64,000 nt of DNA, taken from the NCBI GenBank assembly GCA_958417225.1, contig CATZCM010000003.1, positions 13,433 to 77,432 of the forward strand, in the 5' to 3' direction. This document shows positions 39,478-45,700 of the stretch, one piece after another. The number at the start of each line of letters is the position of its first letter. The stretch's first letter is position 1. The notes below the pieces were generated by a model. The model did not search any database. It was not told the DNA's origin and saw nothing but the letters and a program-made list of their open reading frames with translations. The DNA comes from an uncultured Eubacteriales bacterium (lineage in GTDB: Bacteria; Bacillota; Clostridia; Oscillospirales; Acutalibacteraceae). The position numbers and the translations under genes are program-made.

Positions 39478-39517
39478 CGAAAAATCTGACGGCAAATGCT
39501 ATAAAATTGCCGTCAGA
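39478..39517 (-). terminator. Rho-independent terminator (minus strand) inside the IR-flanked segment
   Basis: 11-bp perfect stem TCTGACGGCAA / TTGCCGTCAGA (39485-39495 / 39507-39517), followed on the minus strand by TTTTTCGC. Confidence 0.65.
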
Positions 39518-39759
39518 AAATTCTGGAAATTAAAATTGAGTTATGAACGTTCAAACATAAAAAGAATGCGTCCTTGAGCCAAAAACACAGATTTTTTACA
39601 TAAAACACATTAATTTGAAAAGTGATCAAAAAAATTAACATAAATCTTTTCAAAAAGAGTCGATAAAACTCCTTGTAAATTTCATTTTGATTGTGATACG
39701 ATGCTGTGATATGTGATTTTAACTATTGTGCCGAAAAAAAACTTTTTTTTGTATTTTAC

Positions 39760-39910: not shown

Positions 39911-39948
39911 AAAAAAAAATAGCTGCAAGACATAAATCTATACAGCTA
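39911..39948 (-). terminator. Rho-independent terminator after the small peptide gene
   Basis: Minus strand TAGCTGTA...TTGCAGCTA (6-8 bp stem) followed by T9, about 30 nt after the stop at 39977. Confidence 0.6.
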
Positions 39949-39976: not shown

Positions 39977-40228
39977 TTAAGATAATCGATTACTCAAACC
40001 ACAATAAATAAGTGGAATATTTTCTTCTCCACGAATATTTTTCATATGTTTACAAAACTGGCAATCATTTTTCATCGCCTTTAGTTCTTCTGAAGAATAG
40101 TCATTTCCCAGTGAATCTTTCAAAAATTTCGCATCAAAGCTATCGCAATAGCAAGAACCTAGTGGATCAATTAACTTATAAACGCCACCATTTACACTCA
40201 CTTCGTCATTATTTTCAACTTTCAACAT
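39977..40228 (-). CDS. 83-aa Cys-rich peptide with a double-glycine-type leader (candidate exported peptide/bacteriocin precursor)
   Basis: ATG 40228 is preceded by GGAGAGGG (5-6 nt spacing), 18 nt after the ABC gene stop. Sequence is MLKVENNDEVSVNGG/VYKLIDPLGSCYCDSFDAKFLKDSLGNDYSSEELKAMKNDCQFCKHMKNIRGEENIPLIYCGLSNRLS. It is co-oriented with a C39-peptidase ABC exporter. I recognise no family. Confidence 0.6.
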   Translation of the reverse strand: MLKVENNDEVSVNGGVYKLIDPLGSCYCDSFDAKFLKDSLGNDYSSEELKAMKNDCQFCKHMKNIRGEENIPLIYCGLSNRLS

Positions 40229-40246
40229 CCATTCCCTCTCCTTCAA

Positions 40247-42442
40247 TCACGAATAGTTATCAGTACGTTGACGTTCCACAAGCTCTGCAAAATATCCCTT
40301 TTTATCTATTAGCTCTTGATACGTACCATCCTCAATAATCTTTCCTTTATCCAAAACCACAATTCTATCACAATGTTTAATAGTAGACAGTCTATGAGCA
40401 ATAACAATCCTCGTACTTTTCAAGCTATCAAGGGAATCAGACACTTGTTTTTGAGTAATATTATCAAGTGCAGATGTTGCTTCATCAAACATAATTACCC
40501 TAGGTTTAGGAGCTATAGCCCGAGCAATCATCATTCTTTGCTTTTGACCTCCAGAAATTCCTCCACCACCCTCACTTATGACAGTATGCATTCCCATCGG
40601 CATATTTCGTATATCGTCATCAAAGCCTGCCATACGAGCAGCCTCCCAAGCATCGTTAAGGGTAAGCCATGGTGCACAAATCACAATATTAGCAAAAATG
40701 TCCCCCGAAAACAATTTTCCATCTTGCATAACTGTTCCGATCTTTTGCCTCAAAGATCTTAAATCTAGAGATTTTATATCTTTTCCATCATAATAAACCG
40801 CACCACTATTTGGAGTCTCAAATCCCAATAAAATTCTCATCAAGGTTGATTTACCACAACCTGTCTTTCCAACTATAGCAATGTATTCTCCTGGTTTTAT
40901 CTTCAAACTTAAGTCATCAAGTATCAAAGGTCCATTCTCACTATACTTAAATGAGATATTATTTAGTTCAATATTCCCAGAAAGTTTTGTAAGTATTTTT
41001 TTATTCACATTAACTTCAGGTTGGGCATCTAAAATAGGGGACACCAATTCAAGTGTTGGTTTAATTTTAGCCATAGTTGTAGCTATACTTGCCAAAGACA
41101 TAATTGCACTACTAATTTGTCCGTACGCAGTGTTAAATGCAACATAGTCCGCTACATCAATTTTCGATTGAATTGCAAAATAATACAATACTATCGTACC
41201 AATTGAACTCACAATAGTACTAAAAATCGGCCAGATTTTAACTATAAAAGCTGGATTATACTGTAACTGTGCTGAATCCTTGTAAACATTGGACCACTTT
41301 GCAAAAGCACGTTTTTCAGCTCCGGCCAACTTTATTTTTTGAATTCCGCTAAACAAAGAGAATACCAACCCTTGGAGTTTATTTTCCACCTCATTATTTT
41401 TTCGTTGCAAATTCATCGAAATATACACATAAATCGTTGACATCACCAACTGAACCAAAACAATAATTATAGCTGGAATCACCAACATTCGCCCATACGC
41501 TAACATTGATCCCAAATAAACAAATGAGCATAAAGCTGCCAATCCATGTTCTAGCACAGCACTTGTAAGCATCGAACAGAGCGAATTCAAACTAAAAGTT
41601 CTATTAGCAAGTTCTCCCGCATTGTAATCTTTGAAAAAAGTAGCTGGCAGTGACATCAATCTACTCATAGCCGCACACGAAACTGCCAAACCCATTTTAG
41701 TTTGGAGCCTAGTCCGTACCAACGCACTCGTAATTGAAATCAAATACTGAGAAATTTCAACACCAATAAAAAATGTCAGCACTGGTGCTAAAAAGTTAAG
41801 ACCACTTTCACCAAGAGGAACTACCTTTTGATAAATCGTCTTATTCACCATTGGCACCAAAAGACCTATTAAATTACCAAAAATCATTGTAGCAACAATC
41901 ATTAACAAATCGGCTTTTGACAAAGCACTAAGTGAGTACCACAATAGATCCTTGATTTTCAGAGGTTTAAGTGGAAGCGGTTTATAAAAGCAAATAGCCT
42001 CCGGTTTAATTAAATTCATATTTTTAGAACTGAGCGAAACATGCTTGCCTGTTTTATAATCATAATATCTATAATGACCAATGCCATACGGTAAAAGAGC
42101 TATAACTTCTCCAGAAGCAGTCCTCCCAATCATGGGTCCAATTGCGTCTTTCCACCACTTACCATTTAGCTTAACATTTCTATACATGATTCCTGTGGGT
42201 TTAAGCATATATTCTAGCTGATCACTAAACCCTTCTACATCATTTGGTAGCTCAATTATTTTCGATTTATAGTATTTTAATATTTCCTCAATCGCATTTT
42301 GAGTTTGAACTCTTTCATTATTAACTGTAGCTGATGAATGTTGTTTTCCAAGTATTACCGAAGATAAGTCTATAACGGCATCCTCAAACTCCTGACTATC
42401 TTTTTCGATTCTGGTTTTTATTTGCTCATCGAACCAACCCAT
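40247..42442 (-). CDS. ABC transporter permease/ATPase without peptidase domain (NHLP-type bacteriocin exporter, second subunit-like)
   Basis: 731 aa. A ~160-aa non-peptidase N-terminal domain, six-TM ABC exporter core, Walker A GKTGCGKST, signature ISGGQKQR, Walker B IMFDEATSALD. Paired with the C39-ABC gene, as in the TIGR03796/TIGR03797 pairs I recall. Confidence 0.75.
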   Translation of the reverse strand: MGWFDEQIKTRIEKDSQEFEDAVIDLSSVILGKQHSSATVNNERVQTQNAIEEILKYYKSKIIELPNDVEGFSDQLEYMLKPTGIMYRNVKLNGKWWKDAIGPMIGRTASGEVIALLPYGIGHYRYYDYKTGKHVSLSSKNMNLIKPEAICFYKPLPLKPLKIKDLLWYSLSALSKADLLMIVATMIFGNLIGLLVPMVNKTIYQKVVPLGESGLNFLAPVLTFFIGVEISQYLISITSALVRTRLQTKMGLAVSCAAMSRLMSLPATFFKDYNAGELANRTFSLNSLCSMLTSAVLEHGLAALCSFVYLGSMLAYGRMLVIPAIIIVLVQLVMSTIYVYISMNLQRKNNEVENKLQGLVFSLFSGIQKIKLAGAEKRAFAKWSNVYKDSAQLQYNPAFIVKIWPIFSTIVSSIGTIVLYYFAIQSKIDVADYVAFNTAYGQISSAIMSLASIATTMAKIKPTLELVSPILDAQPEVNVNKKILTKLSGNIELNNISFKYSENGPLILDDLSLKIKPGEYIAIVGKTGCGKSTLMRILLGFETPNSGAVYYDGKDIKSLDLRSLRQKIGTVMQDGKLFSGDIFANIVICAPWLTLNDAWEAARMAGFDDDIRNMPMGMHTVISEGGGGISGGQKQRMMIARAIAPKPRVIMFDEATSALDNITQKQVSDSLDSLKSTRIVIAHRLSTIKHCDRIVVLDKGKIIEDGTYQELIDKKGYFAELVERQRTDNYS

Positions 42443-42459
42443 TTATAACACCTCACTCT

Positions 42460-44616
42460 CTATTCATTTGAAACTAGTTTAGTGTATAAACCGCCATTTT
42501 TGTAGAGTTGTTCATGAGTACCTCGTTCCACAATTTTGCCATGGTCCATCACTATAATCTCATCGCAATCTCTAATCGTAGACAATCTATGTGCAACTAT
42601 TACACATGAAATGCCTCTATTTTTTATGGCCTTCATCACTTCAAACTCAGTTTTTGCGTCAAGCGCCGATGTTGCTTCATCCATAATAATTATAGACGGA
42701 TCCTGTGCTAGCACTCTTGCAATTTCAAAACGCTGTATCTGTCCTCCAGAGAAATTCTTGCCATTTTCCAACACCTTTTCACTATATCCATCAGAACGTT
42801 TAACTATATCATCATGAATTTGGGCATCTCGAGCTGCAAGTATAACTTCAAAATCTTCAATTGATTCATCCCACATTTTTATATTATCGGACACCGAATC
42901 TTCAAACATGATTTTATCCTGATCAACAACCGCCAAAGACCCTGCAAATACTTCTCTTCGTATATCCTCTCTTTTTTTTCCATCAAACGTAATACTCCCT
43001 GACCATGGTTGATAAAGGCCTGAGATTAACTTTGCAAGAGTCGATTTGCCACACCCTGATGCACCTACAAAAGCCACCCTTGATCCTGGTTTCAATTTAA
43101 GATTAAAATTCTCAATAAGCGGTCCGGAAAGCCTATTATATCCAAACGTAACATCTTTCATTTCAAGCTCACCGCTTAATTTAGAGCATTCCTCATTTTC
43201 AATGTTACTATCTTCGTCAAATTCAACATCTGTTTCATAGCTCATCACATCTTCTATTCTTTCCATAGATGTTCTCATTTCGATGAAGCTTGTCCCCAAT
43301 GAAATAAACTTATTAATTGGTGAATTAAACAGGGACAAATAAGAAGTAAACTGCATTAAAAGACCTACTGTAAAGTTTCCCTTCATTATAAAGTAAACTC
43401 CGGCACCTGTTACAGCTATGCTTGTTAATGTTGTAATAATAGTTTGAACCGAACCAATATACTGGGCTATTTTCGCAGCTCTTACCTGCGCAGAATTAAA
43501 AGACGCGAAAAAACCTGACCAACGCTCAAAAAATCCATTTTCAGCACCAGATGATTTCACAGTTTCTATCATGTCTATACCCGACATAGTACTCGAGGCC
43601 AATTTCCCACTATCCCTCATCATACCTCTTGCAACATTTTGCTGCAAAAGCGCACTATATCTTGCTATTAAAATATTTATAAGAAGTGTAGAAAGCCCAA
43701 TAATCGTAAGAATCCACTGATTACTGATCATCATCCATAAATACAAAATCAACAGGAACACGTCTATTACTACCGGTGACAATTGATCAATAAGCGTATT
43801 CGCTATATTAGCGTTAGTACTCTGTCTACTAGCTATATCACCAGCCAATCTTTGTGAAAAGAACTCCATCGGAAGTCTAAGTACATGCCACATAAATGTA
43901 GTACTTCCGATAATTGCAACTTTACCTTGTATTTTCAACCTGTAAACCGTTTCTATTGCCATTTGTACTATCTGTATTAATACAAATAAACTAATCGCAA
44001 CCAAAAATGGAACTATCCATTCGGGGTTTTTTGCATTTACTCCCAACAGTCGGTCATAGAAAACTCTACCAAAAGCTGGCTGAATTATTTCTATAGCGCC
44101 TGCAATAACACTTGTTAGCATAACAAAAATTATTGGAATTAACGTGCCTTTCAATCTCTTGCGAACGAACTTTAATACACTCTTTGGTTTGCCTCCCTTT
44201 TGGAATGACTCCCCCGGTGAAAAACACAATGCAACCCCTGTAAACGACTCATCAAATTCCCTCATACTAACGGCAACCTTGCCACGAGCAGGGTCATTTA
44301 TATATACTCTATCTTTCGAAAATCCAGTTAAAACAACAAAATGATTAAAATTCCAGTGAATAATCGCTGGCAGACTCAATTCCTTAGCTTCTTCAACTCC
44401 ACATTTATAAGCATTCGCATTTAACCCATATGCCCTAGCCGCCAACATCATATTTTTACAGTTGCTACCGTCACGGGATACGCCACAATCGGTTCTAACT
44501 TGCTCAAGTGGAAGCCATTTTTCATAATAGGCAAGTATCATTGCAATACAGGCTGCTCCGCACTCGAGGGCTTCCATTTGAATAACAACTGGAACCTTTG
44601 TTTTTTTATTTTTCAT
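42460..44616 (-). CDS. C39-peptidase-domain ABC exporter (bacteriocin-processing/export type)
   Basis: 718 aa. N-terminus QMEALECGAACIAMILAYY...HWNFNHFVVLTGF...NDPA carries the C39 Cys/His motifs. Then TMD, GASGCGKST, FSGGQIQR, IIMDEATSALD. Confidence 0.85.
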   Translation of the reverse strand: MKNKKTKVPVVIQMEALECGAACIAMILAYYEKWLPLEQVRTDCGVSRDGSNCKNMMLAARAYGLNANAYKCGVEEAKELSLPAIIHWNFNHFVVLTGFSKDRVYINDPARGKVAVSMREFDESFTGVALCFSPGESFQKGGKPKSVLKFVRKRLKGTLIPIIFVMLTSVIAGAIEIIQPAFGRVFYDRLLGVNAKNPEWIVPFLVAISLFVLIQIVQMAIETVYRLKIQGKVAIIGSTTFMWHVLRLPMEFFSQRLAGDIASRQSTNANIANTLIDQLSPVVIDVFLLILYLWMMISNQWILTIIGLSTLLINILIARYSALLQQNVARGMMRDSGKLASSTMSGIDMIETVKSSGAENGFFERWSGFFASFNSAQVRAAKIAQYIGSVQTIITTLTSIAVTGAGVYFIMKGNFTVGLLMQFTSYLSLFNSPINKFISLGTSFIEMRTSMERIEDVMSYETDVEFDEDSNIENEECSKLSGELEMKDVTFGYNRLSGPLIENFNLKLKPGSRVAFVGASGCGKSTLAKLISGLYQPWSGSITFDGKKREDIRREVFAGSLAVVDQDKIMFEDSVSDNIKMWDESIEDFEVILAARDAQIHDDIVKRSDGYSEKVLENGKNFSGGQIQRFEIARVLAQDPSIIIMDEATSALDAKTEFEVMKAIKNRGISCVIVAHRLSTIRDCDEIIVMDHGKIVERGTHEQLYKNGGLYTKLVSNE

Positions 44617-45273: not shown

Positions 45274-45573
45274 TTATTCTATATTTAATACATCCACAAA
45301 ACCTGTAATTTCAAACACTTCCATAATCTCTTCATTTGCATTTTTAACCTTTAAGCATCCATCTATCGACTTCATCCTTTTATGCATTGACAATAAAACC
45401 CTAAGTCCTGCGCTACTCATGTACACTAGTTCCTTCAAATCAAATATAAGCTCTTTTACTCCATCTAATCCATCATGCAACTCTTTTTCCAATTGTGGAG
45501 CTGTATTTGTATCCAACCTTCCCTCGATGCTCACAGTTAACGTTTCACCATTTAATTTTTTATTTAGTGTCAT
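45274..45573 (-). CDS. STAS-domain protein (SpoIIAA-like anti-sigma-factor antagonist fold)
   Basis: MTLNKKLNGETLTVSIEGRLDTNTAPQLEKEL......LIFDLKELVYMSSAGLRVLL....K......L.VKNANEEIMEVFEITGF is a classic STAS pattern, including the DLK.L.YMSSAGL phosphorylatable-Ser region. Start set to ATG 45573 (GGGAGGG 6 nt upstream). It is the first gene of the exporter operon. Confidence 0.8.
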   Translation of the reverse strand: MTLNKKLNGETLTVSIEGRLDTNTAPQLEKELHDGLDGVKELIFDLKELVYMSSAGLRVLLSMHKRMKSIDGCLKVKNANEEIMEVFEITGFVDVLNIE

Positions 45574-45700
45574 CCTAATCCCTCCCATTTAATTTTGAGC
45601 TGAAAGCTTGACCATAAGAAGTGCCTTATCAAATTGTAAAATTAATATAATAACAAGGATAACAAGTGCACTTTTTTTATAAACTCTATTCGTGATTTAT

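Follow-up and report, generated by a model that had tools for sequence, protein, structure and literature searches.

The locus described here raises the question of whether a small Cys-rich gene at the end of an ABC exporter operon encodes a protein that is cut after a double glycine and exported, and whether it is the only protein that this exporter carries. The window, by which we mean the whole 64,000-nucleotide stretch of DNA that was analyzed, contains a five-gene operon with the following features, given in the order in which they are read.

45274-45588, minus strand: STAS-domain protein (PF01740, E=3e-17), first gene of the operon here and also in the homologous locus L009
44633-45253, minus strand: short HlyD-like secretion protein of 206 aa, matching the N-terminal 53 positions of TIGR03794 alone
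42460-44616, minus strand: ABC1, a C39-peptidase/permease/ATPase (906 bits for TIGR03796, where the cut-off is 853; E=6e-36 for Peptidase_C39)
40247-42442, minus strand: ABC2, an export permease/ATPase of the NHLP type that lacks a peptidase domain (752.6 bits for TIGR03797, where the cut-off is 709.4)
40234-40243, minus strand: Shine-Dalgarno sequence AAGGAGAGGG in the spacer between ABC2 and the peptide gene, read from the sequence
39977-40228, minus strand: P0001, the Cys-rich peptide precursor gene of 83 codons, identified as an ORF with its translation
40184-40228, minus strand: putative double-glycine leader MLKVENNDEVSVNGG, codons 1-15, with G14 and G15 invariant
39980-40183, minus strand: predicted 68-aa mature core VYKLIDPLGSCYC...CQFCKH...YCG, codons 16-83, with residues that are invariant in two subfamilies
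39911-39947, minus strand: Rho-independent terminator closing the operon, a hairpin of the 9-bp class followed by T9, found with RNAfold in the downstream 77 nt

The strand of P0001, which the initial annotation had left unstated, is the minus strand, with the ATG at 40228-40226 and the stop codon at 39979-39977; what the annotation did state about the sequence was confirmed throughout. Its full translation reads MLKVENNDEVSVNGG followed by VYKLIDPLGSCYCDSFDAKFLKDSLGNDYSSEELKAMKNDCQFCKHMKNIRGEENIPLIYCGLSNRLS, the predicted cleavage site lying between the two, after GG. Both the strong ribosome-binding site and the 18-nt gap after the second ABC gene that had been described were confirmed in the sequence. 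The stop codon of ABC2 (40249-40247) is separated from the ATG by positions 40229-40246 (TTGAAGGAGAGGGAATGG), in which a GGAG-type Shine-Dalgarno sequence, AAGGAGAGG, lies 6-9 nt ahead of the start, and the element AAGGAGAG is kept in L009. Since the L009 homologue has an in-frame TAG two codons upstream of its ATG, the start codon of P0001 can be regarded as fixed; the TAG and the position of the ribosome-binding site together make a TTG at 40246 an unlikely start. The peptide gene of L009 is likewise followed by a hairpin and a T-run. Past the operon terminator of the window lies an invertible-promoter segment.

Contig L009 carries the five genes of the window operon in unchanged order and encodes P0007, an 80-aa homologue with 65% identity to P0001. 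The other products of the two loci are more similar to each other (exporter proteins, 86-88%, with ABC2 at 86%; STAS proteins, 85%; HlyD-like proteins, 73%), and secreted cargo usually diverges faster than its exporter. Comparison of P0001 with P0007 over 80 codons gave a dN/dS of 0.21 overall, 0.17 in the core, and 0.48 in the leader (dS ~0.9, ~0.92), showing that P0001 is a real gene under purifying selection.

Few relatives of this gene were recovered. A word-indexed search of 5.8 billion clusters returned its own cluster alone, with six near-identical variants including P0001 on a total of 72 contigs, and a HMMER scan of 1.84 billion representative proteins returned one homologue, P0007. 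No homologue of P0001 was found in 60 relatives by single-sequence search, and no P0001 family was found in Pfam or NCBIfam, where matches were at noise level at most; 14 family members gave no match in NCBIfam at E<=10, and a profile search of the PDB gave no chain similar to the family at E<=10. A second branch was recognized in genome G166, where a 125-aa ORF lies 3' of ABC2 (locus L013) and its C-terminal half resembles the window peptide, with the common motif K-[LI]-[IV]-D-x2-G-x-C ... C-[QE]-F-C-x-H-x-K-N ... Y-C. The 125-aa family was reached only with a profile that included this positionally equivalent ORF: the three-sequence profile (P0001, P0007, and the L013 ORF) retrieved eight further 125-aa proteins from metagenomes. 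In 11 sequences spanning both subfamilies, G14, G15, K18, D21, G24, C26, F35, C56, C59, H61, and C76 were invariant, and C28, hence the CxC, was limited to the 83-aa subfamily.

The initial annotation had proposed to check whether the Gly-Gly site is conserved and whether homologues occur away from exporters, for example as intracellular zinc-ribbon proteins. Neither check spoke against the proposal. G14 and G15 do not vary among the 16 distinct protein sequences that were recovered, and no exporter-less homologue was found either among the 1.84 billion representative proteins or in the ~1,200 genomes of the same family, order, and class. The latter comprised 401, 401, and 399 genomes, respectively, and represent a floor, as two genomes of the class-level draw were unscored. 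Six-frame profile searches placed the peptide family in G000, the genome of the window, and in G166 only, that is, in 2 of the 401 genomes of its bacterial family; the order- and class-level searches gave chance-level matches only, many of them with internal stops. The peptide gene lay directly 3' of ABC2 in all eight recovered loci (the window, L009, and L035-L040). Loci L035-L040 carry, in this order, a short HlyD gene (205-207 aa), ABC1 (718 aa), ABC2 (729 aa), and the 125-aa peptide gene; they are without STAS and occupy a different chromosomal neighborhood, between enolase and prmC. The family was not found in the closest sister cassettes (L014, L017, L023, L032, and L034). This small protein family, new to Pfam and NCBIfam and amounting to 16 distinct sequences among ~15 billion proteins, is very narrowly distributed and always tied to a C39-ABC export cassette.

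The predicted mature part comprises 68 aa (7.77 kDa; pI 5.7; GRAVY, -0.44; maximum KD19, 0.62) and contains no hydrophobic stretch, in agreement with its earlier description as hydrophilic. The five Cys reported as CxC...CxxC...C were all found (C26-x-C28, C56-x-x-C59-x-H61, and C76). The invariance of four Cys and one His suggests two disulfides or a metal site, a composition that is also typical of an intracellular zinc site. On the earlier proposal of a disulfide- or metal-stabilized fold, structural modeling favored neither option, as the models were of too low confidence to be used: AlphaFold2 gave a pLDDT of 52 for the 83-aa protein, with NGG placed at a beta-hairpin turn in this low-confidence model, and a pLDDT of 45 for a 125-aa member modeled with the family alignment, in which the MKEALAIA stretch was helical. 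A GG leader is expected to be helical.

The similarity between the two subfamilies begins at the Gly-Gly. The 12 residues before GG are 5% identical between subfamilies, compared with 32% for the core, and the leader is 15 aa long in the 83-aa subfamily versus 56 aa in the 125-aa subfamily. Among the 125-aa proteins themselves, identity reaches 95% over the last 18 residues of the leader (VF.GPNFITMKEALAIAGG), 68% over the core, and 57% over the N-terminal 38 residues. The step in identity at GG is the pattern that would be expected of a leader/core boundary, and a single folded domain spanning the N-terminus is hard to reconcile with it, because the similarity starts at GG and the leader lengths differ. 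The only leader positions at which the subfamilies agree are -12 (V/F/I), -8 (D/E), -4 (V/I), -2 (G), and -1 (G). The acidic -8 is a position of the classical bacteriocin-leader consensus. The other conserved positions are among those read by the peptidase domains of PCATs, the substrates of which carry hydrophobic residues at -4, -7, -12, and -15 (PMC7018657). The leader has V at -4, V/F at -12, M at -15, and an acidic residue at -8, whereas position -7 is E in the window, K in its homologue P0007, and A in the 125-aa proteins. A position-specific scoring matrix built from 42 local GG leaders gave the window leader 5.7, whereas none of the 42 scored below 14.2, their own values being somewhat inflated because they had trained the matrix; ranked with 1,558 GG sites from the long ORFs of this genome, the window leader is in the top 2%. 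No similarity of the window leader to Nif11 (TIGR03798) or NHLP (TIGR03793) leaders was found, the NHLP type being defined by homology to the nitrile hydratase alpha subunit. The leader has the length and ending of GG leaders, which run to roughly 15-30 residues and close with Gly-Gly (or Gly-Ala or Gly-Ser), but it may be called weakly canonical, with an atypical E/K at -7. Of the earlier claim that its spacing and terminal GG suit C39 cleavage, the invariant GG and positions -4, -8, -12, and -15 held, while the charged -7 and the low matrix score did not fit.

The catalytic residues of the C39 domain are intact. ABC1 was said to keep its catalytic Cys and His, and C19 and H92 are indeed present, along with Q13 and D108; the spacing of 16 residues between His and Asp is that of PCAT1. 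A tree of ABC2 sequences separated clade A, found beside Nif11 peptide arrays, from clade B, to which the window, L009, the 125-aa loci, and the STAS/RsbW-like-linked loci (L043, L044, and L047) belong. All clade-B cassettes examined have the short form of HlyD (165-207 aa) beside them, apart from L046, in which no HlyD-like gene was seen. In L043, L044, and L047 (genomes G141, G149, and G082), a gene for an RsbW-like kinase (134-138 aa) precedes STAS upstream of short HlyD, ABC1, and ABC2; in the window and L009, STAS has no kinase gene next to it, and both genes are missing from the 125-aa loci.

To place the peptide gene among comparable loci, the slot 3' of ABC2 was surveyed in 25 TIGR03797 loci; these belong to 21 genomes out of 151 from the bacterial family. 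Nine of the loci have clear GG-leader genes 3' of ABC2, most of them with Nif11-type leaders (L010, L015, L018, L024, L031, and L033) and two with short leaders (L022 and L028). Beside the clade-B cassette of L046 (3905-4723; G079:C24), two hydrophilic ORFs of 93-100 aa carry 17-aa GG leaders (MNNNLLAENDLEKAAGG) and would be a further example of short leaders on protein-like cargo. In L045 (10899-16556; G087:C3), a single contig carries about 15 tandem Nif11-leader peptide genes, flanked on one side by a clade-A cassette and on the other by a clade-B cassette in convergent orientation. In L043 (6993-7598; G141:C28), ABC2 ends in an acidic, low-complexity C-terminal tail of ~180 aa that closes with ...NLKNVSGGSKKSKKENQDKK and may be the fused remnant of a downstream GG-leader gene.

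We consider it reasonably probable that P0001 is the precursor of a secreted, unmodified GG small protein that is exported after Gly-Gly cleavage. This is the best reading because the slot after ABC2 that it occupies holds clear GG-leader cargo in sister cassettes, a position that supports its assignment as cargo. P0001 would be translated as the last cistron of the STAS/short-HlyD/C39-ABC/ABC2 operon, and its 15-residue leader would dock on the C39 domain of ABC1 through the hydrophobic residues at -4, -12, and -15, the acidic residue at -8, and Gly-Gly at -2 and -1. The peptidase residues Q13, C19, H92, and D108 of ABC1 would then cut the bond after G15, and the 68-aa hydrophilic core (7.8 kDa), starting with VYKLIDPL, would pass through the ABC1/ABC2 heterodimer. 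Outside the cell, C26, C56, C59, and C76 together with H61 may hold a compact fold through two disulfides or a bound metal. The cleavage, export, fold, and extracellular role of the core are what we infer, and they lead to the prediction of a 7.77-kDa product starting with VYKLIDPL. Regarding its role, we lean toward a signaling or protein-binding factor rather than a membrane-active bacteriocin, since no immunity gene was found and the net charge is not conserved (mature pI of 5.7, 7.5, and 9.3 in three homologues). The protein is thus a candidate signaling or competition factor of an uncultured gut lineage, and its practical value, a modest one, would lie in better annotation of secreted peptides of the gut microbiome. 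An elaboration that we regard as a long shot is that the core is a secreted Cys4/His metal-binding mini-protein of strictly anaerobic gut Clostridia, acting as a metal scavenger or as a metal- or redox-dependent signal; it would be released through a general Nif11-leader exporter gated by a STAS partner-switch, and the cargo domain would have swapped leader types (15 versus 56 aa) to match the exporter.

Whether the peptide is the sole cargo depends on what else the genome encodes. The genome has no TIGR03797 cassette other than that of the window, and it contains two C39 exporters, the window ABC1 and one on contig C7. The latter belongs to a classical class II bacteriocin locus (G000:C7:34580-39872), which encodes a pair of hydrophobic peptides with GG leaders (64 and ~66 aa), a C39-ABC protein of 729 aa, and a full-length HlyD-like accessory protein of 363 aa, together with membrane ORFs and immunity-like genes. 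Nif11-type GG-leader proteins are the canonical clients of TIGR03797-type cassettes, and at least 12 ORFs with such leaders were found on other contigs of the window genome, as follows (contig:position).

G000, large Nif11-leader ORFs: C2:56676, C14:36777, C48:3667, C1:78872, C1:81015, C2:85285, C10:25285
G000, small Nif11-leader ORFs: C4:68989, C4:69692, C20:10970, C11:24440, C9:31192

Several of these frames encode 550-1,467 aa with a hydrophobic stretch straight after GG, and Nif11-leader frames of relatives reach 4,023 aa (G082:C19:21485). Such large frames suggest that, in this family of Clostridia, large proteins are secreted or anchored with the help of PCATs. Of the 151 genomes of the family, 21 have the cassette, and these include all eight in which Nif11 leaders were found (Fisher p = 3.7e-8). 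The Nif11-leader genomes G000, G067, G152, and G154 each have a single TIGR03797 match, of clade B where it could be placed; the G067 copy, L029, runs off its contig and was omitted from the ABC2 tree. The window exporter therefore very probably also serves the many Nif11-leader proteins of its genome, as judged from these leaders and their co-occurrence with the cassette. Because the genome has this one cassette and at least 12 Nif11 leaders elsewhere, and because other Nif11-leader genomes have a lone clade-B cassette, the Cys-rich peptide is probably a lineage-specific client encoded in cis and one of many, not the sole cargo. The initial annotation, which presented the peptide as the likely cargo, was supported by the linkage in 8/8 loci and the invariant GG but was too narrow in view of the Nif11-leader ORFs. 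More broadly, NHLP-type cassettes in gut Clostridia would handle non-Nif11, protein-like cargo with short leaders, and this exporter probably serves many scattered clients, very large proteins included.

A different reading of the same residues is that the product stays in the cytoplasm, uncleaved, as a Cys4/His metal-binding mini-protein that works on or with the exporter, for instance as a regulator, an adaptor, or a chaperone for Nif11-leader clients, with the Gly-Gly serving as a structural turn. The atypical -7 and low leader score, the hydrophilic and acidic character of the protein, the resemblance of CxxCxH plus two more invariant Cys to a zinc site, the NGG at a hairpin turn in the low-confidence AlphaFold2 model, and the many other candidate clients of the exporter would all be consistent with this. 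However, the similarity between subfamilies starts exactly at GG (5% versus 32% identity) after leaders of 15 and 56 aa, the gene occupies the cargo slot of sister cassettes, and no zinc-finger or zinc-ribbon family was matched in Pfam or NCBIfam. A zinc ribbon would be recognized by two CxxC-type knuckles or a domain match, whereas the peptide has one CxxC, and CxC occurs in one subfamily only. The family is also missing from most same-clade cassettes and is therefore not a general exporter subunit. We regard a cytoplasmic role as unlikely, and cleavage and export of the core as the preferred account.

A classical class II bacteriocin, unmodified and killing by membrane permeabilization, is also an improbable identity for the product. 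Such a bacteriocin would be expected to be cationic and/or hydrophobic and membrane-active, with a dedicated immunity gene close by. The GG leader, the link to a C39-ABC exporter, and a peptide that evolves faster than its exporter are what such a bacteriocin would present. Nevertheless, the mature part is hydrophilic and slightly acidic, without an amphipathic or hydrophobic segment, its pI varies from 5.7 to 9.3 across homologues, and no immunity-type membrane ORF was found in any locus; a membrane-active bacteriocin is unlikely for these three reasons. Moreover, the genuine class II locus of this genome, with its immunity-like genes, lies elsewhere, on C7. Two points of the initial annotation were upheld here, namely that the mature part is unlike hydrophobic class II bacteriocins (pI 5.7; GRAVY, -0.44; no hydrophobic segment) and that no immunity-like small transmembrane gene is nearby, as no co-oriented small membrane ORF was found 3' of P0001. 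The only small hydrophobic frame near the peptide, a 46-aa ORF at 39513-39653 on the minus strand, is probably no gene; it was rejected as an immunity gene, being beyond the terminator and inside the invertible-promoter segment, with a TTG start and a poorly spaced ribosome-binding site.

The NHLP-type cassette was first described with RiPP precursors (PMC2887384), and a Cys-rich core after a GG leader beside such a cassette might be one whose Cys become cross-linked (by thioether, sactionine, or similar linkages) before it is cut at GG and exported, through the action of a maturase whose gene lies elsewhere. Three SPASM-domain radical-SAM genes are present in the genome, on other contigs. Against this, no maturase (LanM/LanC, SPASM radical-SAM, or cyclodehydratase) was found in or near any of the eight loci (operon and flanks), and a core of 65-69 aa with the invariant non-Cys residues K18, D21, G24, F35, and H61 looks more like a folded protein than like the hypervariable core of a RiPP. 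A search for LanC-like proteins gave no match, but control genomes were equally silent, so that this search is uninformative. A RiPP precursor thus seems very improbable. That P0001 is a chance ORF or a decaying, functionless remnant, as its very narrow distribution and lack of a database family might imply, is hardly credible and has effectively been refuted already by the dN/dS of 0.21 over 80 codons at dS ~0.9 and the eleven residues invariant across two subfamilies, in addition to the conserved ribosome-binding site, start codon, and terminator.

Returning to the secreted small protein as the preferred reading, the P0001 family most likely belongs to the GG-leader PCAT substrates, a well-known kind, with the cargo family itself being new. 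In common with the GG peptides ComC, BlpC, and Rtg (PMC7018657), P0001 has a short N-terminal leader that ends in Gly-Gly, is hydrophobic at -4, -12, and -15, and is acidic at -8; its gene adjoins a C39-ABC exporter with intact catalytic residues that the cargo outpaces in evolution. In contrast to these peptides, P0001 is charged at -7 (E/K), its core is a 68-aa hydrophilic Cys4/His protein where theirs is a short pheromone or a hydrophobic bacteriocin, its gene has neither an immunity nor a receptor gene beside it, and the window exporter is a two-ABC system (TIGR03796 plus TIGR03797) instead of a homodimer. The NHLP/Nif11 systems with the TIGR03794/03796/03797 cassette (Haft et al. 2010, PMC2887384) are similar in that the exporter genes of the window score above the curated cut-offs, the precursor gene adjoins the cassette, and the leader ends in Gly-Gly. 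They differ in that the P0001 leader, of 15 aa (56 aa in the sister subfamily), is dissimilar to Nif11 and NHLP leaders, the core is conserved and protein-like rather than hypervariable, the HlyD-like partner is truncated to ~200 aa, and the operon is headed by STAS.

By analogy, the nearest functional parallel of P0001 would be CtA, the protein-sized cargo of PCAT1 in Clostridium thermocellum, which is encoded next to PCAT1 and is not known to have a function. PCAT1 is a homodimer and has neither a second ABC gene nor an HlyD-like partner, the leader of P0001 is shorter than that of CtA, and no PDB chain was similar to the P0001 family at E<=10. On the other hand, both are Clostridia PCAT systems with small, protein-sized cargo, and the catalytic C21/H99/D115 of PCAT1 corresponds to C19/H92/D108 of the window ABC1 (PMC8794836). 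The CtA leader ends in G23/G24 and is wrapped around the peptidase domain, and the transmembrane cavity accommodates the entire cargo (PMC8794836).
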